From a virus, in IMG/VR virus record IMGVR_UViG_3300027896_005002, positions 251,488-315,487 of that record: DNA of 64,000 nt; one strand, given 5' to 3'. Below are positions 22,287-62,948 of this stretch, in pieces (positions within the stretch are counted from its first letter, which is position 1; each line of letters starts with the position of its first letter). The notes under the pieces are model-generated. The model ran no database searches and was not told the origin of the DNA. It saw nothing but the letters and a program-made list of their open reading frames with translations. The position numbers and the translations under genes are program-made.

Positions 22287-22314
22287 GAATAAATTATAAC
22301 ATAGTTCTCGAGAA

Positions 22315-40579: not shown

Positions 40580-42439
40580 TCAACTTAATTCTAAGTAAAT
40601 AATTTTATTTGTTAAAATAGATAAAATTCCTTGTGTGTATAACATCAACTGACTTGAATCATTTACATAGCTAGCAGTCGATGCTTTTACTGATACATTA
40701 CCATGCTTTTCAATAGCAATACCTGAATCAGTAGGATGAATTAAATTAGATCCTGCAAACGTTTTTCCATAAATATTAGACAATAATTCTGAACTTATTG
40801 ATTCTTCAGATTTTGTTTCCAATATTTTTCCCTTATCATCGATAATATGCCAATGAGAATATGTCCGACCATTATGTATATTCTTCCGTAATAAAAGAAC
40901 ACTATTAACAGAAGTAATTACATCCATATCTATAACCTGACCTGGTAAATCCGGCAACTTAATCTCATAACGAACAGTTGGAGTAAAAATAAAAAATTGA
41001 TATTTTTCAAATATTCGATAAAAACCAAAATTAAGATATTTTCCTGCTTGAATCCACGTTTGATTCTCTATTGATGACATTATATCTGTTTCAATGAAAT
41101 TGTTTCCACCAACAATTGAACCTCTCATTATTGTATTATTAGTCAATCTATAAAAACCATCATTATCACAAGTAATTACTGGTTCATTCCTGTACAACAT
41201 TGTTGATGTACTACCAACATGCTTAATGCTTTTATTGCTAACATCAAATATTAATACTTTAGTGTTTTGAGCAACTACAAGATAATGTAGTAAAAAGTAT
41301 TCATATCTGAAATCCTTTTGAAATCCTTGCCACAAAGTAATTGTGTTTTCAGAATTTTTTGTAACTAATGATAAATTAGTATTTTTGCCATCATAACTTA
41401 TAACAACAATTGTATCATTAATCACTTTAGTAAATAGAATTGTTCCTTCAATTTGAAATAATGTAGAAGCCACACATTGCTCTTTTCCAACCTGTTTTGT
41501 CATTTTTACTTTTGACAAATTTGCAGTAATTTGAGGTGTAACTTGCATACACTGCGGACAGGTACCTCTAGAATTATGATAAAATGTTTTACAAGCGCTA
41601 CATTCAATGAATGAATTTTGCAATGATTGAAGTAAAGTAATGGGTAAATTTGGTCGTTGACCATGACAGAAAATTTCTGAAAAATATGTTAAAAGTTCAT
41701 CACTTATAGTTTCAGGTTTTTTTCCCATTACAGGATAAGTAACACTCTTGTCAAAAACCCAGACATTATTTTGTGCTCGTGTAAACAATGTTTTATGTTG
41801 TTGTTGAATTCCACCATAAGGATGAACAAAGAATAAACTTTTGAAAAGTATTACAGCAAAAGAATACCAATCTGTTTGCTGTGTAAACATTGGCTTTTTT
41901 GTCAAATCAACACCATATAAACTAGGATCAATAAAATCTTCTGTTCCAACTATACATGGATAACTGTCAAATTGAAATGAATCAACATCTATATAAATCG
42001 GTACATAAGTAGTAATATCGAATAATATATTAAGATCGTTAAAATCACCAACAATTATACCTAAATCATGAATTGAATCCAAAGTTGTTTTTGTTTGAGT
42101 AAAACAATCCACAACATGATTAGTAGTTATTTGCTGTACGCTTCGAAATTTTGTAACCGATAAATTTCTAATATCTTTGCAATTATCTGCAATACCCATT
42201 GCAAAACCAATAACTTTATTTCTATTATCATATAAATTGTCGATCGGCGCCATTACATTGACTGGAAAAGCAAATCTATGTGATAAAAAATCCTGTAGTT
42301 TTTTTGCTCTTTCCGCTGTAGGTTGATGATAAATTTTAAACGCAACATTACCATGAACTACAATGTTTGCCTCACCACCACTACCGATACTCTTTTTAGG
42401 ATCAATAGTAATTGGTGTACCTTGATAAATTACTTGCAT
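40580..42439 (-). CDS. Eukaryotic-like Ser/Thr protein kinase domain with large C-terminal zinc-ribbon and repeat region
   Basis: Gly-rich loop IGSGGEANIV, Lys in VAFKIY, catalytic loop IHDLGIIVGDFNDLNILF (HxDxxxxN), DFG-like YIDVDSF; C-terminal CSACK...CPQC. Confidence 0.65.
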   Translation of the reverse strand: MQVIYQGTPITIDPKKSIGSGGEANIVVHGNVAFKIYHQPTAERAKKLQDFLSHRFAFPVNVMAPIDNLYDNRNKVIGFAMGIADNCKDIRNLSVTKFRSVQQITTNHVVDCFTQTKTTLDSIHDLGIIVGDFNDLNILFDITTYVPIYIDVDSFQFDSYPCIVGTEDFIDPSLYGVDLTKKPMFTQQTDWYSFAVILFKSLFFVHPYGGIQQQHKTLFTRAQNNVWVFDKSVTYPVMGKKPETISDELLTYFSEIFCHGQRPNLPITLLQSLQNSFIECSACKTFYHNSRGTCPQCMQVTPQITANLSKVKMTKQVGKEQCVASTLFQIEGTILFTKVINDTIVVISYDGKNTNLSLVTKNSENTITLWQGFQKDFRYEYFLLHYLVVAQNTKVLIFDVSNKSIKHVGSTSTMLYRNEPVITCDNDGFYRLTNNTIMRGSIVGGNNFIETDIMSSIENQTWIQAGKYLNFGFYRIFEKYQFFIFTPTVRYEIKLPDLPGQVIDMDVITSVNSVLLLRKNIHNGRTYSHWHIIDDKGKILETKSEESISSELLSNIYGKTFAGSNLIHPTDSGIAIEKHGNVSVKASTASYVNDSSQLMLYTQGILSILTNKIIYLELS

Positions 42440-43261
42440 TTAATTGACCTCTATATTTGTAAGCTTTTCTGCACAACTTGCACAAACATTACATATTTCC
42501 TTTGCATCATTTGTTAATAGACTATTACATGTTGCACATAATGTTTCAAAAATCACACAGCACACATCATCATTAAATAACTTTTCATTTTGCCATACAT
42601 TAATTCTACGTTGTAATTGTCGCCCTTTAGTACCATACAAATCACTTATATGATACTTATCATGATTTATAAGTGGTGTCAGTCCGTCAGAACCGATAAT
42701 TAATCTTTTGACGTTTACAGTTAAGTAATTTCTTATTTCTATACCACTTAATTTTGTTCTGGATTGTGTAAGATATTTATCAGGTATATTTCCATATGCA
42801 AGATAATGAGGACTATTATCTTGATCAAATTTGATGACATCATTATTGATAACTATTACACCATCACCACAACGACCTATAAGAGTATTTATATCATCAA
42901 TAATAAAAAAGATGAACGTTGCAAGTAGATTATTTTTAATAAAATCAACTTGTTCTGATATATCAAAAATCATTAAATTTCTTAGGAATTCATCAATATA
43001 AGTATAAACACTATGCGTTAAAATTGCAGCTAAATCTGATTTAATTTGTTGTTGCGCATTAAGTTGTTGTAATTTTTTTAAAATAAATGTTCCTAACAAA
43101 TTAGCTCCAATTTCAGAATTTGTTCCTTCTGAACAACCATCACAAATAATACCATAAATAGTATTATTTGCTGTAGCTATTTTGCAAAAATCCTGCAAAT
43201 TTTTTCTTTCAAAAATATGATCATGACCAATATGAATTGCACTATTTAAAGAAAAAATCAT
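42440..43261 (-). CDS. PP2C-family Ser/Thr protein phosphatase
   Basis: ICDGCSEGTNSEIGANL (PP2C DGxGG...G..AS region) and IIGSDGLTPLI (PP2C xxSDGL motif). Start placed at the internal Met MIFSLNS (43261) because the longer track ORF overlaps the upstream gene by 95 nt. Confidence 0.6.
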   Translation of the reverse strand: MIFSLNSAIHIGHDHIFERKNLQDFCKIATANNTIYGIICDGCSEGTNSEIGANLLGTFILKKLQQLNAQQQIKSDLAAILTHSVYTYIDEFLRNLMIFDISEQVDFIKNNLLATFIFFIIDDINTLIGRCGDGVIVINNDVIKFDQDNSPHYLAYGNIPDKYLTQSRTKLSGIEIRNYLTVNVKRLIIGSDGLTPLINHDKYHISDLYGTKGRQLQRRINVWQNEKLFNDDVCCVIFETLCATCNSLLTNDAKEICNVCASCAEKLTNIEVN

Positions 43262-43322
43262 TATATTCTCCGGGTTAAAACGAAAAGTCCAGATTTTATA
43301 CTGGACTTTTCTTAAAAATGGA

Positions 43323-44129
43323 TTATGCTGCTTTTGCTTTTGCTTTATCCTTCGCCATATATCGTTGCATCCTAACGGCAACATCCTTAATACCATAAAT
43401 GTCCAATTGAAAATCATTCAATAATTCAACTGGATCGATGCCTAAAATGGCAACAGTATAAAGTATTGATGGCATAATAGTGCCGATGTCTTTTATGTAA
43501 AAATCAATATTGTTTTGGCCGTAAAATTGACGTTTAATGTCTTCTTCCATTTTACCAGTTCGCATAAAAGCCAAAGAACACCACGCCACATGATTTCCAT
43601 GAAGAATCGACATCATTTCTATCGAATTAACGTTCTTTATGGCAACTATCAACATGTCAATGACATCCTGTTCGGAATATAGAATGCTTGACTTATTGCA
43701 AAGAAAAGCACTTATACTTTTTGCCAATGACATTGTTGTTGCCTGATTACTTACTTTTGCACCATGCGGCAATTCATCGAATGTGACAAAATTGGGATTA
43801 AACACTTTGTCTGCGGGATTTGCATCGGTTGAAATTCCTAATTGTAATCTTGCTTCAGGCGACAGGTCCTTTACATAAACTGCATTTTGTTCTTTGCCAG
43901 TAAATGTATAGGATTTCATTCCTGCACCTGCATAATCAATTTTGAGAGTTTTTCCTACCGGAAAAAAACCCTTAAATGGATTATGTAGATCATCCATTTT
44001 AGCTTTTTGTCCTTCATACCAAATATCATGAGGACAACGAGCCGGAATATCAACCGTCTCTAACAAATACAAATAAACTGCACTACCACTGCCAGGTATA
44101 GTGGTAGGTTTATCAATCGGATACCTCAT
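43323..44129 (-). CDS. Hypothetical protein adjacent to phosphatase
   Basis: 268 aa, Lys/Ala-rich C-terminal tail (KDKAKAKAA); no family recognised. Confidence 0.3.
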   Translation of the reverse strand: MRYPIDKPTTIPGSGSAVYLYLLETVDIPARCPHDIWYEGQKAKMDDLHNPFKGFFPVGKTLKIDYAGAGMKSYTFTGKEQNAVYVKDLSPEARLQLGISTDANPADKVFNPNFVTFDELPHGAKVSNQATTMSLAKSISAFLCNKSSILYSEQDVIDMLIVAIKNVNSIEMMSILHGNHVAWCSLAFMRTGKMEEDIKRQFYGQNNIDFYIKDIGTIMPSILYTVAILGIDPVELLNDFQLDIYGIKDVAVRMQRYMAKDKAKAKAA

Positions 44130-44147: not shown

Positions 44148-44816
44148 CTACTTTATGATTTCACCTGTTTTGTAAGACCAAAACAATATGTCTAAGTGGT
44201 CAATATTTATATCAATTTGATTTGCAAAGTTCATCATACGTCGCTCAATCTCAATGTATTCTTTACCATTTCTTGGCTTTGAAACTTTGACTTTAAATAA
44301 ATTTAACATAGAAATGATATGTTTATCTAAAATAGCAAAGCCTTGATATCCTACATTTCGTAAAAAATGACTACTTTCTTTAAAACCTATTCCTAAAATG
44401 TTTAATTTAAGAAATTCACGAAGAGCAAATTGATCATTAATGATTTCAAATATTCGGAATAAATTTAATCCAAAACTACGTTGAAGATAATCTCTAGATT
44501 CAATTATATATTTTGCTCTTACGTTTGGAAATCGATGGTTATGTTTTAATTTATTTTTGATGGTTTCTTCATTATCGGTTATAATAGTGTCACCGAGAAT
44601 ATCAATACATCTTAGCGCCATTTTTGCACTGGCATTTGCGGTAAGAATACAAAAAACTAATTCTTTGAAAAGTGCTAACCTATCGCCACTAGAACCAATT
44701 GCTTGGAATTCACTTAGTCGATGTTCAATTTGAGGCTGGATAAGATTATAATAATCTTTTAGACTACTTATAGAATCAATTACTTTTGAATTATCAACTT
44801 TTATAATGTCGATCAC
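44148..44816 (-). CDS. HhH-GPD DNA glycosylase, Ogg2-like (8-oxoguanine DNA glycosylase / AP lyase)
   Basis: ELVFCILTANASAK and ILGIGFKESSHFLRNVGYQGFAILDKHI match the Ogg2 signature (GxGxKxASHFLRNxGxxDxAIxDRHI) with the catalytic Lys and Asp. Confidence 0.55.
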   Translation of the reverse strand: MIDIIKVDNSKVIDSISSLKDYYNLIQPQIEHRLSEFQAIGSSGDRLALFKELVFCILTANASAKMALRCIDILGDTIITDNEETIKNKLKHNHRFPNVRAKYIIESRDYLQRSFGLNLFRIFEIINDQFALREFLKLNILGIGFKESSHFLRNVGYQGFAILDKHIISMLNLFKVKVSKPRNGKEYIEIERRMMNFANQIDINIDHLDILFWSYKTGEIIK

Positions 44817-45622
44817 AACAAATTTGTAACTTCTCTAACAAAATGTTGAAAATCAGATCGTTCTCTGATTTTAGGATCCCAAGCCATGCCCATTTCCTTA
44901 AGATCATATTGCTTGGTAATTGTTGCCCCTTCTTTATCTGGTTCTTTAGCCAATAACCAAACTGTATCTGCAATAGCCATTGCACTTTCAAGATCATGAC
45001 TAACCAAAATCAATGTATTATATTCGTTTAACACGGAAATCTTGAGTAATAATTCAATCACTTTGTCTTTCATCAATGTATCTAAACCAGAAAACGGCTC
45101 ATCCAAAAGAATGAATTTATTATCCGTCAGAATTTGCTGAATAATGCTTACGCGTTGTTTTTGTCCGCCCGAAAGTTGTGCAGGATATTTATTTAATTGT
45201 TCTGAAAGACCAAAATCAGTAGCATATTTACGTATTATAGAATCAGCAGTTGTACTATCGTATTTTTTTCCACAATGAGACAATCCTCTTTTGAGATTGT
45301 TGTAAATTGTTCTGTGATCAAAAAGTATATAATTTTGTGGAATAATACCCACTTCGCCTGGAGTAACTAAATGCTGATCTTCTGTTATAAGAACGCGACC
45401 TGTTGTTGGCCTCATTAATCCAGAAAGAATTTTAAATAATTGAGTTTTTCCCAAACCACTGCGACCAACAAGAGCAACGACTTGTCCTTGATCAACATTG
45501 GCTCGAACCACATCCCTAATTTCAAAATTGATGTCACGGAGAATTTGACGACCCGTATATTGAAGGCTAACATCTTTTGCCGACAACAGAACATTTTTTA
45601 ATTGGTAATCTATTTTATTCAT
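44813..45622 (-). CDS. ABC transporter ATP-binding protein
   Basis: Walker A GRSGLGKTQ, ABC signature LSGGQKQRV, Walker B ILLDEPFSGLD. Start placed at Met 45622 (ATGA overlap with the permease stop) instead of the track start 45670. Confidence 0.8.
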   Translation of the reverse strand: MNKIDYQLKNVLLSAKDVSLQYTGRQILRDINFEIRDVVRANVDQGQVVALVGRSGLGKTQLFKILSGLMRPTTGRVLITEDQHLVTPGEVGIIPQNYILFDHRTIYNNLKRGLSHCGKKYDSTTADSIIRKYATDFGLSEQLNKYPAQLSGGQKQRVSIIQQILTDNKFILLDEPFSGLDTLMKDKVIELLLKISVLNEYNTLILVSHDLESAMAIADTVWLLAKEPDKEGATITKQYDLKEMGMAWDPKIRERSDFQHFVREVTNLL

Positions 45623-46488
45623 TTGTTCACCTGTAATGTTGAATAAAGAAATAAACAACGACGTAACCATCTTAAACTTATGTCAATTAAAACACCAAAA
45701 AAGAATATAATCATAAGAACCGCAAACACTCTTGGTAAATTCAAAATCTTATTGGCCTTTATGATCATTGTGCCTAAACCACCTTCTGCCATACTTAAAC
45801 CTTCAACCATTGTAATCATTAACCAAGATATTGCAAAGTTTTGTCGAATGACTTCAACAACCATATCAAGTTGTCCCAAAATAATTACTTCATATAATGT
45901 TTCATATTTACCAAAGCGAAGTGTTTTACATAAATCATATTGTTGATTGTTAATTTGTGCCAAAATTGATGTTAATGAAGTAATAAAAAATGGTACAATA
46001 CCAAAAATCAAAAGACTGATTTTTAATTGACTCGTATCTTTTGACATCAAAGTAAATAGGAATATTAAACCATTAAGTGTTAAATATCGACATTGAGTCA
46101 TAAAATTTGTAATTGGTCGAATTATAGGAATGACTGATGCATATGTAAATATTAATGCAATTACCATTGAATAAAGCATTGCTTTAATTGTTAGCATCAA
46201 ACTGCTAAACAAATTATCAATGAAGCCTTGTTCAGTGACAATTGCAGCAATATTCTGAGCCACAATAAATGGTCCAGGTATTAAACTTTCTTTGCCGCAA
46301 ATTAAATGCCAACAAAGAAAAGCTAATATTACTTCAAAAACAATAACAATAGTTTTTGCTCGTTTTGGAAGTGTCGCAAAAGGTTCAAACATTGGAATTT
46401 TCATTTTTATTTTTCCCTTAAAAAAGAAAGACTTGGAAAATGTAAAGAGATCAACCACGCCAGTAGCCAAGCCTCTAAACATCTCCAA
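45619..46488 (-). CDS. ABC transporter permease
   Basis: 289 aa with multiple hydrophobic helices, directly upstream of the ATPase and downstream of the binding protein. Confidence 0.6.
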   Translation of the reverse strand: MEMFRGLATGVVDLFTFSKSFFFKGKIKMKIPMFEPFATLPKRAKTIVIVFEVILAFLCWHLICGKESLIPGPFIVAQNIAAIVTEQGFIDNLFSSLMLTIKAMLYSMVIALIFTYASVIPIIRPITNFMTQCRYLTLNGLIFLFTLMSKDTSQLKISLLIFGIVPFFITSLTSILAQINNQQYDLCKTLRFGKYETLYEVIILGQLDMVVEVIRQNFAISWLMITMVEGLSMAEGGLGTMIIKANKILNLPRVFAVLMIIFFFGVLIDISLRWLRRCLFLYSTLQVNK

Positions 46489-46498
46489 GTCCTATTAA

Positions 46499-48262
46499 TT
46501 AATTACCAAGGACAATTTCTACTCGACGATTCTTTGCACGACCTGCAGCACTTGAATTATCCGCTATTGGTCTTGTATCACCAAAACCTTGAGCCTCAAG
46601 AGCTTTGGGCTTCATTCCTTTTGTTGTTAGTAAATAATCCTTTACTGCATTTGCGCGATTATCGGAAAGTTCAAGATTTTTCTCAGTATTTCCGGTATTA
46701 TCGGTATGACCATAAATACCCAACTTACAACCTTCTGCAACCATTGCAGAGTTGAATATTTCATCAAGTACTCTGTAGGATTCAGGTCTGATTTTGGAAC
46801 TTCCAACCTCAAACTGAATTTGATATGATTTTGATGAAACTTTAGTAGTGATTTGATCGGAATAATTTACGGCTAAAGCTTTTCCTTCCATTAATTCCGG
46901 ATGGTTTGCAACCACAGACATTAGGAATGATTTATCAATTACCTTGGAATAATCCGGATAGGTTGGCATTATTTCCGGATACATTTTGCTTAAAATAGTT
47001 CCAAAGGTATTGTAAACGATTTTGTATCGATCGATACCATCTTTTCCTAAGCCGAACATATTGGCAGCATCCGAAAGATTAAAAGCCATTGAACCGCCAA
47101 GATCAACTTCGAAATTTTGAACATCTTTTTGTTTCATTCCATTATAATATTTAAGCCAATATGTTGGATCCTGTTCATTATAGACCTTGGCTGATACTTT
47201 TGCCGCAAACATTTTTGCATCGCTGAAAGACCGAACTTGATCACCTGCAGTTCCCAATGCTGCAATCAAACTTTCAATATCTGATCGATGATCATTGGCA
47301 AATTTCTTGATTGTGATTGTGATGTTCGGCATTTGCGATGCATATTGTTTTGTGGAAGCAATAGTAACCAATCCACCTTTTTTGGTTGCTACATTGACAT
47401 CACCAGGTGTCCAAGTGGCAACAGCATCAACATTAACCGAAGTGTCTTTGTTTGTCTTCTTACCATTAATAACAAGTTTGCGTTTGTCTTTGATTTCCGA
47501 GATGTACTTGTTTGGAGCGTCCAGAAAATCACTGGCAGCAATAATATTAATGGCATTATAGTCATAAGTGGTTTCATCCGGATTGACTGAAAGACCATTG
47601 TCACCAGCCCATTTAAGAAGAATGTTAATATCACCGTCACGAAGAACGCCGGCAACGCATTTTCCGATAGCAGCTTTGGGATTTGTTTTCCATTCTGGAG
47701 GTCCCATAATTTTATCTTCACCATAGGATTTTCCCATTGGATAGAATCCCATCGGTTGATAGTCAGGACCGAGAGGTGCTAATTCCTTACATAAACCTTG
47801 GAAAAATGCCGGCATTCCGTCACCCATAAATGATGCAAATACAGCATTAGTTGATGGATTATTTTTGTAATCCTGTGCAAATTTAACAACATCCGCACAT
47901 GCTTTACTGCAATCATCCTGACGGATAATATTAATTGTAAGTCCAGCTTTTTCGATCAATGATCCTTTTGTTGTAACCGGACCGCCATTGGCATACATAA
48001 GAGCGAATTGCGAATTCCATGCCATGATTTTCCAATCAACTTTTACCGCACCATTACCACTTTCCTGATCTGAAGGCATTGCAAGTTTTTGTGCGTTGCC
48101 ACTGAACGATGCTTCCGGAGCATCAGGTAATGTTACCTTTCCGACGACTGCGGCAGCTTTTGCAACCTTTGGTAATTTGTCATACCATAAGGTTTTGCCA
48201 CCAAGAATGGCACCAATGACAATGATGCCCAACATTAATTGACCTCTAGCCTTGATCTTCAT
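46499..48262 (-). CDS. ABC substrate-binding protein (NMT1/SsuA/TauA-like) fused to a C-terminal OmpA/MotB peptidoglycan-binding domain
   Basis: N-terminal signal/anchor, large periplasmic domain, and C-terminal NTGNTEKNLELSDNRANAVKDYL...GFGDTRPIADNSS...RRVEIV, the OmpA-C signature. Higher GC than the flanks. Confidence 0.6.
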   Translation of the reverse strand: MKIKARGQLMLGIIVIGAILGGKTLWYDKLPKVAKAAAVVGKVTLPDAPEASFSGNAQKLAMPSDQESGNGAVKVDWKIMAWNSQFALMYANGGPVTTKGSLIEKAGLTINIIRQDDCSKACADVVKFAQDYKNNPSTNAVFASFMGDGMPAFFQGLCKELAPLGPDYQPMGFYPMGKSYGEDKIMGPPEWKTNPKAAIGKCVAGVLRDGDINILLKWAGDNGLSVNPDETTYDYNAINIIAASDFLDAPNKYISEIKDKRKLVINGKKTNKDTSVNVDAVATWTPGDVNVATKKGGLVTIASTKQYASQMPNITITIKKFANDHRSDIESLIAALGTAGDQVRSFSDAKMFAAKVSAKVYNEQDPTYWLKYYNGMKQKDVQNFEVDLGGSMAFNLSDAANMFGLGKDGIDRYKIVYNTFGTILSKMYPEIMPTYPDYSKVIDKSFLMSVVANHPELMEGKALAVNYSDQITTKVSSKSYQIQFEVGSSKIRPESYRVLDEIFNSAMVAEGCKLGIYGHTDNTGNTEKNLELSDNRANAVKDYLLTTKGMKPKALEAQGFGDTRPIADNSSAAGRAKNRRVEIVLGN

Positions 48263-50004: not shown

Positions 50005-51180
50005 CTACATTATTCCTAATGTTTGTTTACAAAGATTAACTGTTTTAATATTACCAGTATATTTTTTAGCGTCATCTGATAATTTTATTGTGTCTATCCA
50101 TTCATTACCAAAATTACATGCTATTAATTTAATGACTATATTAAGTGGTTTTACACCAACATCGTTTGTAAACCATGTACCAATACCATATCGATCAATT
50201 GCTTTATCTTTGCAAGCTTCATGAATAACATTAATCTGATCCATGGAATGAAGATTGTCCGAAAACATTAACATTTTACTGAGAGGATTTATTCTAAGTT
50301 TTTGATAATGTGCTATTGCTTTATCTAAAAAAATCAATGGTTGTCCACTATCTTGACGCATACCATCATAAAGCTTTGCATACTTTGTATTAAAAGATTT
50401 AAGAAAAACATCGGTGGTAAAAGTATCAGGTAATGCTGTTCCAAGATCACCATTAAATACTTCAACCCATGCTTCATTGGCCATATCATTGGCCATTTTA
50501 AATCCATATAAAGCTGCATGAAGCATATACCATTCATGAGCAACTGTTCCCATAGGAATAAGATTATGTAACATCGCAAAATGAATATTACTTGTTCCTA
50601 ACATATGACCATTGCCGTATTTTTTCAAATGTGCTATGGTTTCATTTTGAACGTGATAAGCAAATCGTCTTCGAGATCCAAATTCTGAATAGTAAATATT
50701 CATATTAGCTAATTTTTCTGCTTTGTCCCGATTATTTTGTTCCCGTTTTTCTATACTGTATATATCATTTTTAATTTCTTTACACGTCATTCTATAATAA
50801 AGTTCACTTATTGTACTCATTAATGGTACTTCCCATAAAACAGTTCTGTAAGCAGGTCCAATAATATCAACACTTAAATCTGGACCTTTTTGTTCTATTT
50901 TAACTTCACTAGGATCAAATTGATATCCTGCAAGAAAATCTAAATAAACGGGATTTAAATAATAACATCGTTCTCGTAAAAAATCTTTTTCATCATTACT
51001 AAGTTTCATTGTTCTAAAACCATCAACAAGTTTGCGTAATTGTTCAGCAAATCCGTCAGGAAATTCTCTCTTGTCACGATTTATAAACTTATAATGATTA
51101 AAAACTTTTGGATATTTTTGACAAATAGCCATGTCCATGGTTAATTTATATAAATCAGTATCTAGCATTGATGAAATCAT
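50005..51180 (-). CDS. pncB: Nicotinate phosphoribosyltransferase
   Basis: N-terminal MLDTDLYKLTMDMAI (NAPRTase hallmark LDTDxYKxTM), plus GTSN and GTVAHEW motifs. Confidence 0.8.
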   Translation of the reverse strand: MISSMLDTDLYKLTMDMAICQKYPKVFNHYKFINRDKREFPDGFAEQLRKLVDGFRTMKLSNDEKDFLRERCYYLNPVYLDFLAGYQFDPSEVKIEQKGPDLSVDIIGPAYRTVLWEVPLMSTISELYYRMTCKEIKNDIYSIEKREQNNRDKAEKLANMNIYYSEFGSRRRFAYHVQNETIAHLKKYGNGHMLGTSNIHFAMLHNLIPMGTVAHEWYMLHAALYGFKMANDMANEAWVEVFNGDLGTALPDTFTTDVFLKSFNTKYAKLYDGMRQDSGQPLIFLDKAIAHYQKLRINPLSKMLMFSDNLHSMDQINVIHEACKDKAIDRYGIGTWFTNDVGVKPLNIVIKLIACNFGNEWIDTIKLSDDAKKYTGNIKTVNLCKQTLGIM

Positions 51181-51944: not shown

Positions 51945-52808
51945 TTACATTATTTTTGCTTTAGAATCCCAATCAGTATATAATGAATTATCCGGTCTGT
52001 AAACTAAAGATTTTATACTTGAAGCAGTATTATTTTGTGTACAAGTTGAAGTTGATACAGTAACACCATTAATATCATAGGGTTGACCATTTCCAAACCA
52101 ATTCAATTTATCGCCATCACTTTCAACAACAATATCATCCAACCATTGAGTAATTTGATCTTGAGTTATTCTATTGTCATAACACCAACTCAAAAAATTA
52201 TCCATGTGCTTTACATTTTTTGGTATCCATAATTCTCTAAAAACTATAGATGTTACACCAAGTGATTTGTAATGCATAATATAACTAATCATTTGATTTT
52301 TTGAATTTATTCCGGCCTTGCATACAACACAACTTAATCTAACTGCAAGACCTAAATTAGTTAACTTTTTAAATAATTGAACATAATCCAATTCCAAACC
52401 ATACAATTCCTGACATTTATCAGTATTGTAATGCGGTACTGTCATTGTTAAATTAGTGATATAAGGAGCCAACATTTGGGAAAAATCCCGGCCAAAAGAA
52501 GGCATTGCCAGAATTTCAGAACCATTTGTATGAAGATCAATTTGACCGAAGTATTTTTTGCAAAGCCATAAAATATTTTCAATATTTGTCCAACTGCCTA
52601 ACAATGTTTCTCCAGAAGATGTTATAATCGCAGTCGAAGCATTTCCGTCTTTTGCGTATTTAATGCATTTTTCCAGTTTGGGTAAATTAATTCCAGGTTT
52701 TTTCAAATCTTTACGAATGTCTGCTGTCATAGCAGCTATGCAATATTTACATTTTGCATTACATCCGACTTCTTGAGGAACAATAGAAATAGAACTTATA
52801 TGCATCAT
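51945..52808 (-). CDS. Radical SAM enzyme, substrate unknown
   Basis: VGCNAKCKYCIA (CxxxCxxC) and SSGETLL (GGE-like SAM motif). Confidence 0.6.
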   Translation of the reverse strand: MMHISSISIVPQEVGCNAKCKYCIAAMTADIRKDLKKPGINLPKLEKCIKYAKDGNASTAIITSSGETLLGSWTNIENILWLCKKYFGQIDLHTNGSEILAMPSFGRDFSQMLAPYITNLTMTVPHYNTDKCQELYGLELDYVQLFKKLTNLGLAVRLSCVVCKAGINSKNQMISYIMHYKSLGVTSIVFRELWIPKNVKHMDNFLSWCYDNRITQDQITQWLDDIVVESDGDKLNWFGNGQPYDINGVTVSTSTCTQNNTASSIKSLVYRPDNSLYTDWDSKAKIM

Positions 52809-54412
52809 TTTCCTTGGAATTGGTTAAACAAATTAGCAATCGGCATCCTACGACCGATAATAAGATCCCTTTCTGATATGATTAATCCTGGAGCAGCTTG
52901 ATGTCTTTTATATTCATTTTTATCAACCATTTGAATTACTCTAGCTACAGTTTTATAATCAAACCCATTGTCGATGATATCATCAGCCGACATATTCTTT
53001 TCTATGTATCTTTTTAAAATACCGTCCAAAATATCGTAGGGCGGCAGTGAATCTGTGTCTTTCTGCTCAGGTTTTAGTTCTGCTGAAGGAGGTTTTGTAA
53101 TTGTATTTTTAGGTATTTGCAAATAAAGTTCACATATTTTATAAATAGTAGTTTTATAGACATCTGAAATTACAGATAAACCACCACACATATCACCATA
53201 AAGTGTACAATAACCTACTGACATTTCTGATTTATTTCCAGTAGATAATAATAATCGACCTTCATCATTTGAAACAGCCATTAATAAACAACCACGAATT
53301 CGAGCTTGAAGATTTTGTTCCGTAACATCCGATTTATATATTCCACCCAATGCAATATTATATACTTGTAATATTTGCTCAATATTTACTATTTGTGACG
53401 TCATCCCTAAATTATTAACTAAATCTTGAGCATCTGTTATGCTTCCCTGACTTGAATATGCCGACGGCATCAATAAACCATGTACATTTAAAGCACCTAA
53501 AGCTTCAACAGCAAGTGCAGCAGTCAAAGCAGAATCAACACCGCCAGATAATCCTAATACTGCTTTTTCGAATTTAGTTTTATAAAAATAATCACTAATT
53601 CCCAAAACCAAAGCCTTTTTGATTTGAACAGTGTCGCTTGGATATTCATTTACTGTGCCTTCGATATGTTTCAGTTGATGGTCTTCAAATTGTACCATAA
53701 CATTTGCTTCTGTAAATTGAGGTGCAATCATTTCAGCAATATCACCATTAACAATCATACTGGCACCATCAAAAATCAATCCATCCTGGCTACCGACCTG
53801 ATTGACATAGAGAATTGATTTGCCAACTTCCGTACTTCGTTTGGTAAGGACTTGTTTTCTTATTCCAACTTTACCTTTTGAAAAAGGTGATGCATTTAAT
53901 GAGATGATGAGATCGGTATCCTTATACATTGATACTGGTTTTTTATCATAATCATCATCCCAAGCATCTTCACAAATAATCAAACCGATTTTCGTTCCTT
54001 TTACGTCTAAAATCAATTTGGACGTTCCAGGAGTAAAATATCGCCGTTCATCAAATACAACTTTGTTCGGCAAAAGTTGCTTATAATATCGATTCACTTT
54101 ACCATTTTTAATCGCACTTGCAACATTATATAAATGAAGCCCAACCTTGACAACATGGCCTACAATAATAACTAAATTACTATAAGCTTTGGATAATACA
54201 CAAACATCGTCAAAAGTATTAGTATTGGCGTCAATGAAAGCCTGATTATATAAAAGATCTTTTTGTGGATATCCGGTTATTGTAGCTTCTGGGAAAACAA
54301 CAATATCTGCATTCTTATTTGCTGCAATCATCACACTGGATTTTATTTTATTTAAATTTTGTATAAAATTACCAACAGAAGTATTGATTTGTGCCACCAT
54401 TATTTTTAACAT
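52805..54412 (-). CDS. nadE: Glutamine-dependent NAD+ synthetase (nitrilase/CN-hydrolase domain plus NadE)
   Basis: PP-loop GLSGGVDSAL in the C-terminal synthetase domain; the N-terminal domain has the CN-hydrolase layout (...VFPE...CEDAWD...). Confidence 0.8.
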   Translation of the reverse strand: MLKIMVAQINTSVGNFIQNLNKIKSSVMIAANKNADIVVFPEATITGYPQKDLLYNQAFIDANTNTFDDVCVLSKAYSNLVIIVGHVVKVGLHLYNVASAIKNGKVNRYYKQLLPNKVVFDERRYFTPGTSKLILDVKGTKIGLIICEDAWDDDYDKKPVSMYKDTDLIISLNASPFSKGKVGIRKQVLTKRSTEVGKSILYVNQVGSQDGLIFDGASMIVNGDIAEMIAPQFTEANVMVQFEDHQLKHIEGTVNEYPSDTVQIKKALVLGISDYFYKTKFEKAVLGLSGGVDSALTAALAVEALGALNVHGLLMPSAYSSQGSITDAQDLVNNLGMTSQIVNIEQILQVYNIALGGIYKSDVTEQNLQARIRGCLLMAVSNDEGRLLLSTGNKSEMSVGYCTLYGDMCGGLSVISDVYKTTIYKICELYLQIPKNTITKPPSAELKPEQKDTDSLPPYDILDGILKRYIEKNMSADDIIDNGFDYKTVARVIQMVDKNEYKRHQAAPGLIISERDLIIGRRMPIANLFNQFQGK

Positions 54413-58592: not shown

Positions 58593-58979
58593 TTAGTAGC
58601 AATTAGTAGCAAATATTTTTGTAATATCATCAAAATATTTGATAATTTCAGAAGGTAATAATCCGCATTCAACAGCTCGTTTACCGTTTCTGGCAATTCG
58701 AAAAATTTCAGCATCTTTATCAATAAAGAAACGTTTTCTTTTTTTAGATTTAGATTTTGAATGTTCTTGCGAATCTATAAAATCAGCAACTTGTCGTAAA
58801 CAATTTGGTCTCCAAAATGTTAAATCATCACTAATAAGACATAATAATTTCCGGCGACCAACTCGTTCTTTATGTATATGTCCAATTCCTCCTCCAGAAT
58901 AACCTGTAACTGGAAATCCTTTTGCATCAATTCCAATTTTTAATTTTTTCATCTTAGTCCACCATTGCCCAAAATTCAT
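58593..58979 (-). CDS. Hypothetical basic protein
   Basis: 128 aa ORF overlapping the ligA start by 26 nt. Confidence 0.25.
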   Translation of the reverse strand: MNFGQWWTKMKKLKIGIDAKGFPVTGYSGGGIGHIHKERVGRRKLLCLISDDLTFWRPNCLRQVADFIDSQEHSKSKSKKRKRFFIDKDAEIFRIARNGKRAVECGLLPSEIIKYFDDITKIFATNCY

Positions 58980-60924
58980 CTTCTGATATCATTTTAATTC
59001 CAAGTGTTTGTGCCTTTGCTATCTTATTGCTATTGGATTTTATAGCCACAAGAAAATTCAAATCCTTATTCACTCGACTTATTGTTCCTCCATGAGCCTG
59101 TACCAATTCATACCATTCTTCTCGTTTATATGGCTTATTGGTCTTTGGATTTACCTTTGAAAAAGCACCAGTAACCTGAAATGATTTTCCTTGTAATTTA
59201 TTGGATTCAGTTTTTACAGCTTGAGCTTTCCTAATCTTAATTCCACTTGCCATCAATTTTTCAATAAGTGGTTGTCGTTGTTCCAGTCCTTCAACGATTT
59301 CTTTCGCTCTTGATGAACCAATTCCAGAAATCTTGGCTAAATCATCAACTGTAACCTCTTCCATTAATGTTCCTAAATCATATTCATCAGCTATCAATTC
59401 AGCCATAGTTTCACCAAGAGAAGGAATTGCCAAAGCACATAAAAAAGTTACAAGATCCATTTCTTTACATCTATCCAATCCATCGGTAATTTTCTTTGCT
59501 GATTTTTCTCCCATTCGATCTAAACCAGCGATATTATTCGCCGTAAGAATAAAGAAATCTGCAGGATCCTTAATAATATTCTTATCAAACAATTGTTGAA
59601 TTGTACTTTCACCCAAACTATCCATACCCATCCGCTTTTTAAGTACATCAACAAAATGCCTTATTTTTCGAAATTCTTTTCCTTCACATTCATTACTTGT
59701 GCATATGAGACTTACACCTTCGGAACCATCATCCTTTTTTACCTTAGTAACCGGTCCATGACACATCGGACATTCGGTAGGAATTTTATACGGCTTACCA
59801 GCAGACTGTATAACCTCCGTAACTTTTGGAATTATTTCACCTGCTTTAATCACCAATATTGTATCACCAATACCAACCTTCAATCTTTCAATTTCATCGA
59901 AATTATGAAGCGATGCAGCTTTTACCATCGATCCATCAATATTCACAGGTTCAATTACTGCATTTGGTGTTATAACTCCTGTTCGACCAACTGTTAAAAT
60001 AATATCTCTAAGAGTAGTTGCGACGCCTCTTGCATCAAATTTAAAGGCAATTTGTGCTTTTGGGTCACCACCAGGATGAAGTCCAAGATCTTTTTGTTTT
60101 TGAATACTATTAAGTTTTATCACCAAACCATCAATATTATATGGCAATTTTTCTCTATCTGATGTCGTATATTGTTCTCGAACTCTGATGACTTCCTGAG
60201 GGGAAATTAATTTATAATTAGCAGTTACCATTTTTAAAGTATGTGACAAATAATCCATTTTTTCTGTTTCAAAACTAAATGTCACATCATCCGAAACTAT
60301 ATCATAAACTACAATACAAAGCATCTCACAACCTTCGCCATCAAACCTTTTACAAATACCACTTGCCGCATTTCTAGGATTTGCATATTTTTTATCAGTG
60401 GTTTGTAATGCGTTGATTGTTTCAAAATCCTTCTTTAATAAAATAATTTCACCACGAACACTAGCCTTTATCTTCTCAGGAATATCCTTCTGAACATATT
60501 TCATTCTCAAAACATTAATGGTAATATCTTCACCGGTCCGACCATCACCGCGAGTTAATCCCTGAACTAATTTACCATTATCATAAATTAACTCCACTGA
60601 CAATCCATCAAATTTATCCTCGGTAACACAAACCCTTCCAACAACACCTGTCCTTTTACACCAATCATTAAATTCGGGAACTGACATCGCATTTTGAAGG
60701 GAAAACATTTTCATCAAATGAGGAGCTTTTTGCCAACCGGAATCTTTTGATGTAGGAGCACCGGTTTCTAATAATACTTGACTATTTGAATCTAACTGTC
60801 TTAATCTTTCCATTAAAGCATCAAAGGCCGCATCTGAAATCCTCGGTTGTTTATTATAATAAAGATATCGATGCAGCCTAATATCGCTTTCTAATCTGGC
60901 AATCTCTGGTTTGTTATTTTTCAT
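58954..60924 (-). CDS. ligA: NAD+-dependent DNA ligase
   Basis: Adenylation motif CVTEDKFDGLSVELIY (KxDG), GLTRGDGRTGEDIT, Zn-finger cysteines (CPMCHG...C), HhH region and C-terminal BRCT-like domain. Length 656 aa is typical of LigA. Confidence 0.85.
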   Translation of the reverse strand: MKNNKPEIARLESDIRLHRYLYYNKQPRISDAAFDALMERLRQLDSNSQVLLETGAPTSKDSGWQKAPHLMKMFSLQNAMSVPEFNDWCKRTGVVGRVCVTEDKFDGLSVELIYDNGKLVQGLTRGDGRTGEDITINVLRMKYVQKDIPEKIKASVRGEIILLKKDFETINALQTTDKKYANPRNAASGICKRFDGEGCEMLCIVVYDIVSDDVTFSFETEKMDYLSHTLKMVTANYKLISPQEVIRVREQYTTSDREKLPYNIDGLVIKLNSIQKQKDLGLHPGGDPKAQIAFKFDARGVATTLRDIILTVGRTGVITPNAVIEPVNIDGSMVKAASLHNFDEIERLKVGIGDTILVIKAGEIIPKVTEVIQSAGKPYKIPTECPMCHGPVTKVKKDDGSEGVSLICTSNECEGKEFRKIRHFVDVLKKRMGMDSLGESTIQQLFDKNIIKDPADFFILTANNIAGLDRMGEKSAKKITDGLDRCKEMDLVTFLCALAIPSLGETMAELIADEYDLGTLMEEVTVDDLAKISGIGSSRAKEIVEGLEQRQPLIEKLMASGIKIRKAQAVKTESNKLQGKSFQVTGAFSKVNPKTNKPYKREEWYELVQAHGGTISRVNKDLNFLVAIKSNSNKIAKAQTLGIKMISEDEFWAMVD

Positions 60925-60991: not shown

Positions 60992-61234
60992 TTATTTTTG
61001 AGGCTTTTCTTTGACATTTTTCTTTGGATAAAAAGGATTATATTTAGCATTTATTTTGCCAATAATAATGCCGATCGCTAATCCTACTGCAAAAGTAAAA
61101 CTAAAAAGAACTAACATAAAATTTGAATGTACTGGTACAATCATATCTTGCATATTACTATATTCTATTTTAAAGACAATGAATAACCAGTCTTCTTTAA
61201 CATCAACTTTCAAACTAGAAAAGAGAGACGACAA
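60992..61234 (-). CDS. Small membrane protein
   Basis: 80 aa with a central hydrophobic helix (MLVLFSFTFAVGLAIGIIIG). Confidence 0.3.
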   Translation of the reverse strand: MSSLFSSLKVDVKEDWLFIVFKIEYSNMQDMIVPVHSNFMLVLFSFTFAVGLAIGIIIGKINAKYNPFYPKKNVKEKPQK

Positions 61235-61292
61235 CAGGAATTGAACCTGCGTAGGCAGTTTTGCAGACTGCCAACCACTCGGACACGCCGTC
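61226..61292 (-). tRNA. tRNA-like gene, class I shape, anticodon read as GCA (Cys); no encoded CCA
   Basis: Minus-strand GACGGCGTGTCCGAGTGGTTGGCAGTCTGCAAAACTGCCTACGCAGGTTCAATTCCTGTTGTCGTCT. T-arm GCAGG-TTCAATT-CCTGT; anticodon arm GCAGT-CUGCAAA-ACTGC (U33, A37); 7-bp acceptor with two G-U pairs. D-arm not resolved by eye. Confidence 0.5.
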
Positions 61293-61303
61293 TAAAATGA
61301 AGA

Positions 61304-61558
61304 CTAACTGAAGAACTTTCTTTCCTGTATCGTCAATCTAGAAATACCCTTATAATGACGCCTTGGATTGCCACAACAATACTGTGAACATCGTTTAGTA
61401 GTATTTCTCAAATATCTTGCTGCAATCTCTCGTTGTTTTCTAACATCTACAGAATAATAAAAATTTGACACTCTTTTACGACTCTTCTTAACACCAACAA
61501 GAAAATGATCCCTCTTGTTTTGAGGATGCGGCATAATGACTCCTTTTGTTAGCGCCAC
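61304..61558 (-). CDS. Small basic hypothetical protein between the two tRNA genes
   Basis: 84 aa, Arg/Lys-rich, with a C-terminal RCSQYCCGNPRRHYKG motif; higher GC at its 5' end. Weak resemblance to small zinc-binding ribosomal proteins; unassigned. Confidence 0.25.
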   Translation of the reverse strand: MALTKGVIMPHPQNKRDHFLVGVKKSRKRVSNFYYSVDVRKQREIAARYLRNTTKRCSQYCCGNPRRHYKGISRLTIQERKFFS

Positions 61559-61597
61559 TAAGTGCGCGTTCGTTTGGAAGCCATCATATCCTCCTTC

Positions 61598-62215
61598 TTA
61601 TAAAAGATCACTATAACTCAAATTTTTATTCTCATTACACAATTTCTTCAATCGATTTAACCACTGAAAAGTCTTTACTTTAAACATAAAAGGATGTTGT
61701 TGTTTGTGCTGACTCTTCATCTTACATACTACACCTTCAAATGTAATTCCAGCTAATTGGTTTGTACGTATTTGATTCTCAACCTCATGATTGAAATTAC
61801 CTTTATGCACAAGCTTCGGTATCCCGATATGACCATAAAGATCAATAAATTCATCTGGATTTATTATTCCACTCTTAAAAGGATTAACATCTATAAGAAC
61901 AATATTATGAGGTTCTTCTATATGAAATCCGGCAAAACTACTACCTCCATAAAATTCAAAAAATGCTACTACTCTATTATATCTTTGTTTCTCAAAAACT
62001 TTATTCATCTCTTCTTCATATTTCTCTTTTATAAGATCTTGCGCATCTATAATATAATCTTGATCTGTCCCAAGCAATCGTCTTCGACTACCAAATTTCC
62101 AAAAACCCTTCTTTCTTTCCCATTCAGCTCGAATATTTGATCCATCTAACTTATCAAAAGCATAAACATAAGATCCATATCTAAGAGTAGATGTTATTGA
62201 AATATACTGTTTCAT
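61598..62215 (-). CDS. RNA ligase 2-like nucleotidyltransferase (KxDGxN motif)
   Basis: YAFDKLDGSNIRAEW resembles Rnl2 motif I KIHGTN (PF09414-type ATP-dependent RNA ligases); 205 aa. Confidence 0.45.
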   Translation of the reverse strand: MKQYISITSTLRYGSYVYAFDKLDGSNIRAEWERKKGFWKFGSRRRLLGTDQDYIIDAQDLIKEKYEEEMNKVFEKQRYNRVVAFFEFYGGSSFAGFHIEEPHNIVLIDVNPFKSGIINPDEFIDLYGHIGIPKLVHKGNFNHEVENQIRTNQLAGITFEGVVCKMKSQHKQQHPFMFKVKTFQWLNRLKKLCNENKNLSYSDLL

Positions 62216-62331
62216 ACTCTTTTTCTTATTGATGGTCTTAAAGGATGTTTTTCTAACTCATCGCCTATAGTTTCATACTCTTTTTCTTATTGATGGTCTT
62301 AAAGGATGTTTTTCTAACTCATCGCCTATAG
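62210..62331. repeat. Perfect 61-bp tandem duplication (2 copies) covering the RBS and start codon of ORF 61598..62215
   Basis: tttcatactctttttcttattgatggtcttaaaggatgtttttctaactcatcgcctatag occurs at 62210..62270 and again at 62271..62331. Confidence 0.85.
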
Positions 62332-62489
62332 TTTCATAATAACAATCATCACACATAAAACCATTTAGTACTTTCTATTTTCCAGTAACCATTGATATCG
62401 GTACTTGACACTTGCAACACTTATCACCATCTATAGTTAAAGTACCTTTATCCATCATTTCCAAAAATTCTTGTAATGTATATGACATT

Positions 62490-62834
62490 TTACCCTAACT
62501 CGTTTGGTACAACGCAACAATATTTTTGTCGTTCTTCTTTAAATTTTTCCCATTGCTGATTTAAATATACAAGTTTTGACTTATCATCAATTTTTGGCAC
62601 TAATTCAATTTCTTTTAATGGTATTACAGTACCATATTGTTTCATATTAGGTTGTAAATTTCCAATATTATAATGATATTCTATATCTAAAAAATTACCA
62701 CCAAATTTATGTCTACTAATTATGAATCCTATATCAATTTTATTATAAATACCTATTTTGGCCCAACGAGCATAAATAAAATAAAGACAACCATCTTTAC
62801 AATCATCTATTTCTATCATTGATAAACATATCAT
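62490..62834 (-). CDS. Hypothetical protein
   Basis: 114 aa ORF. Confidence 0.3.
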   Translation of the reverse strand: MICLSMIEIDDCKDGCLYFIYARWAKIGIYNKIDIGFIISRHKFGGNFLDIEYHYNIGNLQPNMKQYGTVIPLKEIELVPKIDDKSKLVYLNQQWEKFKEERQKYCCVVPNELG

Positions 62835-62857
62835 ATTTGTCTCAATTACAACTTAAA

Positions 62858-62948
62858 TGGAGACGGCGGTGGGATTTGAACCCACGTTGGAGCTTTCGCT
62901 CAGCAGTTTTGCAGACTGCGATCTTCGACCAACTCGATCCACGCCGTC
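62858..62948 (-). tRNA. tRNA gene with long variable arm (class II shape), encoded CCA, anticodon read as GCA
   Basis: Minus-strand GACGGCGTGGATCGAGTTGGTCGAAGATCGCAGTCTGCAAAACTGCTGAGCGAAAGCTCCAACGTGGGTTCAAATCCCACCGCCGTCTCCA. Perfect 7-bp acceptor, T-arm GTGGG-TTCAAAT-CCCAC, V-arm GAGC-GAAA-GCTC, and the same anticodon arm as the other tRNA. Confidence 0.6.

Follow-up and report, generated by a model that had tools for sequence, protein, structure and literature searches.

We report that a 64,000-nt stretch of viral DNA (positions 251,488 to 315,487 of IMG/VR record IMGVR_UViG_3300027896_005002; the window, below, is this whole stretch) carries a tRNA-Cys(GCA) gene with the body of a class II tRNA, t2 (62858-62948, minus strand), and a degenerate second tRNA-Cys(GCA) gene, t1 (61225-61292, minus strand), and that t2 has all the traits of a type of long-armed tRNA-Cys that recurs among phages. 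In the reading that we favour, and consider likely, t2 is a working, class II-shaped tRNA-Cys charged by the cysteinyl-tRNA synthetase (CysRS) of the host, and t1 is a decaying, non-functional copy. The restriction of the long variable arm to the tRNAs for leucine, serine, bacterial tyrosine and selenocysteine (Sec) is among the most stable features of tRNA biology, nematode nev-tRNAs being rare exceptions. Further rare exceptions are the allo-tRNAs and the selC* tRNA-Cys (Mukai et al., 2017, PMC5389517). At least 49 distinct phage tRNA-Cys genes break this rule while keeping a body with a 7/5 arrangement of acceptor and T stems, a Cys discriminator and a helix in the variable arm that compensatory changes have preserved, and lysine and other isotypes break it in parallel. 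The single locus probably holds one working tRNA and one pseudogene; the family that it revealed is a lead for work on tRNA identity and on phage-host conflict. The gene calls, structures, identity nucleotides, recurrence, covariation and synteny given below come directly from our analysis.

A class II-shaped tRNA-Cys, its degenerate partner and the phage type

Gene calling with ARAGORN across the window returned exactly two tRNA genes, each a tRNA-Cys(GCA) and each on the minus strand: t2 (91 nt, anticodon at position 37) and t1 (68 nt, anticodon at position 29). Isotypes are assigned here and throughout from anticodons only. Both genes exceed the 29-bit gathering score of Rfam RF00005 (47.9 bits, E 5.4e-8 for t2; 36.1 bits, E 9.4e-5 for t1), lower-scoring families of the tRNA clan, tRNA-Sec included, having been dropped in favour of the general tRNA model. 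They have in common the 9-nt GACGGCGUG and the 17-nt anticodon arm GCAGU-CUGCAAA-ACUGC, in which the anticodon G34-C35-A36 stands in the 7-nt loop CUGCAAA, and in each the 7-bp acceptor stem is followed by the discriminator U73. A preliminary description, made from the sequence alone, had seen two tRNA genes with the same 5' acceptor strand, identical anticodon stem-loops and GCA as both anticodons, and ARAGORN and Rfam agree that both are tRNA genes, ARAGORN with the same anticodon. The 17-nt arm itself is widespread, occurring in phage tRNA-Cys at 40 loci or more. An origin of the pair by duplication of an integration site is unlikely, as both copies are full length and are identical in the anticodon arm and in the acceptor strand on the 5' side rather than in the 3' half.

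Read from 5' to 3', t2 is GACGGCG-UG-(G)AUCG-AGUUGGUCGA-AGAU-C-GCAGU-CUGCAAA-ACUGC, continued by U-GAGC-GAAA-GCUC-CAAC-GUGGG-UUCAAAU-CCCAC-CGCCGUC-U-CCA. The acceptor/T arrangement is 7/5, and the 3' end consists of U73 and an encoded CCA. The 17-nt variable region (U-GAGC-GAAA-GCUC-CAAC) is made up of one unpaired nucleotide, a 4-bp stem closed by a GAAA loop and four unpaired nucleotides, and the 20-nt D region combines a 3-bp stem (AUC/GAU) and a G13·A22 mismatch with a loop of 10-12 nt that carries G18-G19. With a variable region of at least 10 nt folded as a stem-loop and an enlarged D loop, t2 has a standard class II body; the 17-nt variable arm, the encoded CCA and the shape non-canonical for cysteine that the preliminary description ascribed to this copy are all present. 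The anticodon stem has 5 bp, C26 and U44 being unable to pair, and an 8/4 fold is impossible because U8 faces C65, with which it cannot pair. RNAfold gives a cloverleaf of -35 kcal/mol (z = -3.1 against shuffles), a stability on which the preliminary description had made its reading depend. An exact search of viral contigs for the t2 anticodon and variable arm gave no matches, and the sole match of the 2.4-kb region in a BLAST search against GenBank phages was 80 bp of an RNA ligase gene that lies between the two tRNA genes. We also considered t2 as a copy of the neighbouring tRNA-Ser(GCU) (L042, 8002-8095) and rejected this origin, as that gene differs in acceptor stem, D arm and variable arm and has G73.

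To place t2 among phage tRNAs, viral contigs were scanned for CUGCAAA followed 18-32 nt on by a T-loop consensus, with confirmation by ARAGORN, a procedure whose set counts are lower bounds. The scan yielded at least 49 unique phage tRNA-Cys(GCA) with variable regions of 11-21 nt; U73 is present in 47 of the 49 among the matches listed, and in 39 of 40 unique class I phage tRNA-Cys. Their usual build is 7/5, with an 18-nt D region GCC-GAGUGGUUGAA-GGC-A and a variable arm of one unpaired nucleotide, a stem of 3-4 bp, a tetraloop (often GAAA) and about three unpaired nucleotides. Every trait of the type is found in t2: the 7/5 arrangement, GCA, U73, the class II D arm and a variable arm of about 1 nt, 3-4 bp, a tetraloop and 2-4 nt. 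Its acceptor stem and T stem recur on a metagenome contig (L297) together with the variable arm U-GAGC-GCAA-GCUC-CUC, and its variable and T stems recur in another member (L166). The published Prevotella phage Lak-A1, a megaphage (L304, MK250015.1), encodes at 1495-1575 an 81-nt tRNA-Cys(GCA) for which the GenBank record carries no annotation; it has U73, its D arm is of class II type and its variable region measures 11 nt. When the same scan was applied to one genome per prokaryotic species, the matches listed were mostly Sec-like 8/4 tRNAs (selC*-type, and tRNA-Sec with GCA), and three among them had the 7/5 type, each on a contig of a metagenome-assembled genome (two of these contigs measuring 7.8 and 9.5 kb). 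Searches of the literature outside most subscription journals yielded no description of a 7/5 long-armed tRNA-Cys in phages, nor of long-armed tRNA-Lys or other such isotypes in phages. The 7/5 long-armed phage tRNA-Cys is a recurrent type, and apparently an undescribed one.

The fold of this type is under selection. Across 48 members, 96-100% of cells in the acceptor, anticodon and T stems are paired, with many pair types (79% for the outermost pair of the anticodon stem). In 81% of members the variable region folds into a hairpin with a stem of 3 bp or more, compared with 23% of shuffles (maximum of 200 shuffles, 38%). In a 14-member alignment 96.1% of cells pair as against 64.1% in shuffles, double changes occur at 22 of the 24 pairs and compensatory changes are seen at all four pairs of the variable-arm helix. 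A covariance model (R1) built from 14 phage long-armed tRNA-Cys, with t2 left out, recognizes t2 over its full length at 75.0 bits (E 1.8e-17), in the range of 65-79 bits in which tRNAs for Tyr, Thr and Ser also score; R1 is not Cys-specific, and the membership of t2 therefore rests on the features listed above, while alignment A4 was for the same reason kept out of the pair counts. As a family-specific detector R1 was rejected, class II tRNAs for Tyr, Thr and Ser falling in the same range.

How t2 would work follows from known determinants of CysRS: U73 and G34-C35-A36 are the major ones, U73 alone conferring Cys identity on minihelices (PMC9976931), and CysRS can charge a long-armed tRNA-Cys, as selC* shows, which is cysteinylated and used in translation (Mukai et al., 2017, PMC5389517). 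Because t2 carries both dominant determinants, U73 and GCA, we propose that it is charged with cysteine by the host CysRS. Transcription from the minus strand would include the adjacent genes, maturation of t2 would follow the ordinary route with its CCA already encoded, and the product would read UGU and UGC; charging with cysteine and use in translation are the most likely fate of t2. Given an arm geometry like that of tRNA-Tyr and the lack of G2-C71 and A3-U70, charging by the seryl- (SerRS), tyrosyl- (TyrRS) and leucyl-tRNA synthetases (LeuRS) is not expected. The partner t1, made redundant by t2, would have lost the 3' half of its D arm.

In keeping with this proposal, t1 (5' to 3', GACGGCG-UG-UCCGAGUGGUUG-GCAGU-CUGCAAA-ACUGC-CUAC-GCAGG-UUCAAUU-CCUGU-UGUCGUC-U, then CUC) has a 12-nt D region without a D stem and a 4-nt variable loop, CUAC, and is not of class II shape. 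Its acceptor stem contains the pairs G5·U68 and G7·U66, and U73 is followed by CUC with no CCA; the preliminary description had taken this copy for a degenerate paralogue on account of G·U acceptor pairs and the missing CCA, and rightly so, the D stem being absent as well. Both Rfam and R1 flag the D stem as non-pairing, the R1 score is 42.3 bits with the D stem broken and the variable arm absent, and G18-G19 would need to pair inside a 2-bp mini-stem. In an alignment (A1) of t1 with nine tRNA-Cys that have the same acceptor stem and anticodon arm, t1 alone shows a 6-column gap, where the D arm lacks its 3' half; of the 38 class I-type phage tRNA-Cys sampled, none but t1 has a 12-nt D region.

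Gene order provides a further line of evidence. In a related phage (L047/L299, IMGVR_UViG_3300032516_000008), the RNA ligase gene is immediately followed by an intact tRNA-Cys of 75 nt, whose 3' acceptor strand, UGUCGUC, is that of t1. The order in the relative is tRNA-Phe, DUF559 endonuclease, tRNA-Asn, a small basic open reading frame (ORF), tRNA-Ser(GCU), an ORF, RNA ligase, tRNA-Cys, tRNA-Thr and tRNA(CUA); in the window phage it is tRNA-Phe, tRNA-Ser(GCU), endonuclease, t2, an ORF, RNA ligase, small basic ORF, t1, an ORF and LigA. By synteny, t1 sits where the relative holds its intact tRNA-Cys, downstream of the RNA ligase gene, and t2 is an additional gene beside a mobile-type endonuclease. 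As t1 occupies the position of the intact class I tRNA-Cys of the relative, its decay once t2 was present is the simplest reading; t1 is probably a pseudogene and most likely inactive. In the six other phage lineages in which a long-armed tRNA-Cys has a class I partner, the partner is intact (6/6). The t1 sequence is identical in three assemblies (L041, L042 and L292), which appear to represent the same phage population, so this identity says little about constraint.

Long arms in other isotypes and the tRNA-nuclease hypothesis

Long variable arms are not confined to cysteine. Among 225 tRNAs of class I isotypes in 50 loci (L001-L050) chosen regardless of arm length, 12 (about 5%) have a variable region of 10 nt or more (Cys 3/27, Thr 3/28, His 2/8, Arg 2/23, Asn 1/11, Ile 1/12), each with the discriminator typical of its own isotype. 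Where a locus holds a long-armed tRNA-Cys, its tRNAs of the other class I isotypes have long arms more often (45/362, compared with 11/312 elsewhere; 12% versus 3.5%, Fisher p = 2e-5). The long-armed tRNA-Cys often has a normal, short-armed one beside it, the pair occurring in six other phage lineages, and the same arrangement is found for lysine in two published huge phages. One of them, LR756504 (636 kb; L302, LR756504.1 24980-25068), has a long-armed tRNA-Lys(UUU) with A73 beside class I copies; it is almost the same as t2 in D loop, variable arm (UGAGAGAAAUCUCCAAC) and T arm, whereas the acceptor and anticodon stems are unrelated. The other, LR745206 (635 kb; L303, LR745206.1 21294-21559), has three long-armed tRNA-Lys in a row, two with UUU and one with CUU, all with A73, beside a class I tRNA-Lys(UUU). 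The converse breach exists as well, in 37 unique phage tRNA-Leu with short variable loops of 4-8 nt, 36 of them with A73 (for example L027, 5890-6399, and L018, 1419-1587). Breaches of the class I/class II rule are thus far commoner in phage tRNA arrays than they appear to be in cells. Across the viral loci L001-L169, we also noted long-armed tRNAs for Asn, Thr, Val, Ile, Asp, Lys, Met, His and Arg, among others.

These observations admit a wider interpretation, to which we attach a modest probability, well below even: phages, and huge phages in particular, would systematically build class II-shaped versions of class I tRNAs, the altered arm and elbow serving, together with RNA ligases, as a shield against nucleases or as a mark of self. 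It would cover Cys, Lys, Thr, Asn, Val, Ile, His and Arg, each keeping its own discriminator and anticodon and often standing beside a normal version, and the present locus would be an example, with t2 as the remodelled version and t1 as a normal one gone to decay. If the cognate synthetases charge these tRNAs, the tRNA body can be remodelled freely without a change of identity, and the remodelled bodies would be natural scaffolds for the engineering of orthogonal tRNAs; if the long arm protects them from tRNA-cleaving defences, it adds a new layer to the conflict between phage and host over tRNAs.

Somewhat less probable still, and rather unlikely in our estimate, is the same idea applied to t2 itself, namely that t2 remains a tRNA-Cys but, owing to its long arm and altered elbow, is poorly attacked by a nuclease directed at tRNAs. 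The nuclease would be either an abortive-infection or toxin tRNase of the host or a phage enzyme that destroys host tRNAs, and phage ligases would repair the cuts. Two RNA ligases in the window are relevant here, and they suggest a conflict over tRNA damage. The first is encoded between t2 and t1 (61598-62215, minus strand; 205 aa) and is RNA ligase-like by PHROG 548 (annotated 'RNA ligase', E 2.7e-11), by PF09414 at a level below the curated cut-off (E 5.5e-5) and by the KxDG motif FDKLDGSN; a sequence search of the PDB with this protein gave no significant match. Homologues stand inside the tRNA arrays of other large phage contigs (L046, L047, L048 and L050) and occur on IMG/VR contigs of up to 619 kb. 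The second, outside the tRNA locus (32404-33564, minus strand), is of the T4 Rnl1 type (PHROG 562, E 1.7e-51; PF09511 RNA_lig_T4_1, 70.4 bits against a cut-off of 28.3), a family of ligases that repair the tRNA anticodon loop.

Phage tRNAs can neutralize tRNA-cleaving defences such as retron-Eco7 PtuAB and PrrC (PMC11555353). The recurrent pairing of a long-armed with a normal tRNA of identical anticodon would fit such a role, as would the enrichment of long arms in particular loci. Among the isotypes paired in this way, tRNA-Lys is a known nuclease target. The locus also resembles the T4 system of tRNA repair, in which Rnl1 and Pnkp counter PrrC, in that tRNA genes are interleaved with genes for an RNA ligase and a homing endonuclease and an Rnl1-family ligase is encoded in the window. 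It differs from that system in that a kinase-phosphatase partner and a cognate nuclease were not found: no polynucleotide kinase-phosphatase is encoded by the ORFs scanned, and a nuclease that targets tRNA-Cys has been identified in neither host nor phage. The escapes characterized to date, moreover, work through changes in the anticodon loop or through over-expression, not through the variable arm. The case is purely circumstantial, and an anti-nuclease role of the altered tRNA body is accordingly put forward here as speculation.

Alternatives to cysteine identity and to decoding

One alternative to our reading of t2 as a tRNA-Cys is a serine or dual identity. SerRS would charge t2 through its long arm, and UGU and UGC would in part be read as serine, whether by deliberate mistranslation or because t2 derives from a tRNA-Ser(GCU) by U36A. 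The anticodon plays no part in recognition by SerRS, which depends on the variable arm instead (PMC9976931), a single substitution separates GCA from the Ser anticodon GCU, and Mukai et al. regard the combination of a long variable arm with G73 or U73 as SerRS-compatible (PMC5389517). This last point weighs against the cysteine reading, as do several of our own observations. U73 is present in 13 of 69 phage tRNA-Ser sampled; nhmmer profiles score t2 at 28.6 for Ser and 28.4 for class I Cys; and in such profiles the D arm and body of long-armed tRNA-Cys resemble tRNA-Ser as often as tRNA-Cys, with 27 of 48 members placed nearest tRNA-Ser. To these may be added the limited specificity of R1, an extra G that t2 carries between positions 9 and 10, and the conservation of t1, which is kept in its three assemblies with acceptor, anticodon and T stems intact, so that a residual or non-translational role of t1 is possible. 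Some serylation of t2 is conceivable.

Against this, the acceptor end and the variable arm of t2 point away from serine, and we regard a serine or dual identity as improbable. The near-constancy of U73 in the long-armed type would be without reason in a pure serine acceptor. Phage tRNA-Ser carry G2-C71 in 65 of 69 cases and A3-U70 in 60 of 69, whereas long-armed tRNA-Cys have them in 8 and 11 of 48, respectively, much as class I tRNA-Cys do, and t2 itself has the G1-C72 of the identity set for bacterial SerRS, but A2-U71, C3-G70 and U73 in place of its G2-C71, A3-U70 and G73. The variable stems of phage tRNA-Ser measure 4-7 bp and are followed by a single unpaired nucleotide (47/67); those of long-armed tRNA-Cys measure 3-4 bp and are followed mostly by three, with 4 bp and four nucleotides in t2, so that its variable arm is not of the Ser kind. 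The corresponding number of unpaired nucleotides is two in tRNA-Leu and three in tRNA-Tyr. One member of the family (L109) has its closest BLAST matches among cultured phages in genes annotated as tRNA-Tyr, not tRNA-Ser. As for the two remaining class II isotypes, A73 was found in all 30 phage tRNA-Tyr and all 63 phage tRNA-Leu sampled. TyrRS also requires U35. The Levitt pair G15:G48 is absent from t2, which has G15 and, as the last nucleotide of its variable region, C48; C48 is also found in 38 of 48 long-armed and 20 of 38 class I phage tRNA-Cys; this pair, of the E. coli/H. influenzae type, is confined to a few bacteria (PMC9976931) and is therefore not decisive for membership among tRNA-Cys.

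The origin of the long-armed body is a separate matter, on which the signals differ: nhmmer profiles point to tRNA-Ser, variable-arm geometry and BLAST to tRNA-Tyr, and the acceptor stem and discriminator are of Cys type. With the class II tRNAs of bacteria and phages, tRNA-Tyr in particular, the t2 type has in common the 3-bp D stem, G13·A22 and the enlarged loop GAGUGGUYGAA; it shares with tRNA-Tyr a short variable hairpin followed by about three unpaired nucleotides, and the anticodon loops CUGCAAA and CUGUAAA (tRNA-Tyr) are one base apart. The class II tRNAs differ from it in having A73 (Tyr, Leu) or G73 (Ser) instead of U73, and its anticodon is GCA and its acceptor stem is not Ser-type. 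Judging from these comparisons, the ancestry of the long-armed tRNA-Cys could be Tyr-like, Ser-like or chimeric, with a Cys acceptor stem.

Even less probable than a serine identity is that t2, t1 or both have no part in translation and act as decoys, processing signals or recombination targets linked to the mobile endonuclease next to them. A homing-type endonuclease gene does adjoin t2. It encodes a DUF559/Vsr-like protein and abuts t2 on its upstream side (from 62950 to the window end at 64000 and beyond, minus strand; PF04480, E 3.4e-10; HNH/homing endonuclease by PHROG 559 and 9084), and is 405 aa long on the source contig. Compared with the related phage, tRNAs and small ORFs stand in a shuffled order, and a polymorphic duplication lies close by: TRF detects a perfect 61-bp tandem repeat at 62209-62338 (period 61, 2.1 copies, 100% identity) that spans the start codon and upstream region of the first RNA ligase gene, and the unit is present twice in the window and in L041 (JGI) but once in L042 (ENA), and so varies between samples. 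Some irregular tRNAs are, in addition, chargeable yet unused in translation (PMC5389517). Against a role outside translation stand two observations, the retention by t2 of every feature of a working adaptor (U33 and A37 in the 7-nt anticodon loop, the T loop UUCAAAU, G18-G19, the encoded CCA and U73) and the compensatory evolution in all five helices of the long-armed type.

Finally, the suggestion in the preliminary description that t2 is a Sec-like or allo-tRNA-like recoding tRNA can be given almost no weight: a long variable arm with a Cys anticodon does recall the bacterial selC* tRNA-Cys and tRNA-Sec(GCA) (PMC5389517), which our scan of prokaryotic genomes also recovered, but t2 is 7/5 and not 8/5, 8/4, 9/4 or 9/3, it has a 5-bp anticodon stem instead of 6 bp and an ordinary class II D arm (3-4 bp with a loop of 10-12 nt) instead of a long D stem with a tetraloop, and there is no selB- or cysS-like gene within 10 kb of it and no sign of recoding in the window. 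The likeness to selC* extends to U73 and the GCA anticodon (or UCA in selC*); selC* tRNAs differ in being 8/4, often with an A51a bulge and with longer anticodon and D stems, and they belong to anaerobic bacteria with linked selB*/cysS* genes, whereas t2 stands in a phage tRNA cluster whose gene table, over 10 kb on each side, contains no selB*/cysS*-like gene and no elongation-factor (EF) or CysRS domain. The allo-tRNAs and the irregular phage tRNAs (8/4 tRNA-Ser and tRNA-His; PMC5389517) are likewise long-armed, metagenomic, in part from phages, and off the class I/class II rule; allo-tRNAs are 8/4 or 9/3 with Ser or Ala identity whatever their anticodon, whereas the phage long-armed tRNA-Cys are 7/5 and carry the discriminator of the isotype that their anticodon specifies. 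There is no sign of recoding in the window, also proposed in the preliminary description. Long ORFs end in TAA (32), TGA (13) and TAG (7), ORFs are dense and fit code 11, and reading any stop codon as sense scarcely lengthens them; cysteine accounts for 1.67% of all codons (224 UGU and 43 UGC).

Neighbouring genes and the source phage

In order of transcription, the genes from one tRNA to the other are t2, a 114-aa ORF of unknown function (62490-62834, minus strand; PHROG 3740, E 5.9e-5), the RNA ligase gene, a small basic Cys-rich ORF and t1. The preliminary description had the tRNAs flanking a small basic ORF and an endonuclease gene, which is correct for the small ORF; the other gene that it placed there is the RNA ligase, and the DUF559 endonuclease lies outside the pair. 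The small basic ORF (61304-61558, minus strand) stands directly upstream of t1, matches PHROG 4499 of unknown function (E 5.9e-5), contains the motif C..CGNPR and comprises 84 aa from a GTG start, or 76 aa from the ATG at 61534 in the gene call of the source contig. A homologue adjoins the tRNA-Ser of the related phage (L299, 1745-1981). In both phages the ORF is directly upstream of a tRNA with a different partner, t1 in one and tRNA-Ser in the other, as if it moved with or between tRNA genes. The full DUF559 gene is present on L041 and L042, and its homologue in the relative follows tRNA-Phe. The RNA ligase protein has an identical sequence on L042, the 415,903-bp metagenome contig k141_2484546 of ENA record ERZ27247850, and on L041, a 39-kb JGI contig. 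The relative also encodes, at 4048-4121 of L299, a tRNA with the anticodon CUA, an amber suppressor labelled Pyl by ARAGORN, which hints at TAG reassignment in relatives.

The source is a huge phage with 31% G+C. Besides LigA, the window encodes a split DnaE with an intein, PolX, a primase, an exonuclease, a protein matching a tail-fibre PHROG family and NAD-synthesis genes. DNA polymerase III alpha is divided between two genes (4288-7269 and 9810-11660, minus strand), of which the downstream part contains the intein-splicing domain PF14890, matched just below the cut-off (E 3.5e-8). A NusG-like gene and a sigma-70 region 2-like gene lie side by side (21768-23076, minus strand), which suggests phage-encoded transcription factors. 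A scan for promoters and terminators was uninformative, with 11 promoter-like sites where 19.8 were expected.

A set of metabolic and signalling genes unusual for a phage occupies 39572-60924 on the minus strand. It includes a protein kinase-like gene (40580-42439) adjoining a PP2C phosphatase gene (42440-43417), an Ogg glycosylase (44148-44816), an ABC transporter ATPase and permease (44813-46488), an OmpA-domain protein (46499-48262), NAPRTase (50005-51180), NAD synthase (52805-54412) and the NAD-dependent ligase LigA (58954-60924), all on the same strand. Just past the window end, L041 carries at 4087-5367 a full trigger-factor homologue (Trigger_N, FKBP_C and Trigger_C), and that contig encodes along with it DnaB, NucS and a PD-(D/E)XK nuclease.

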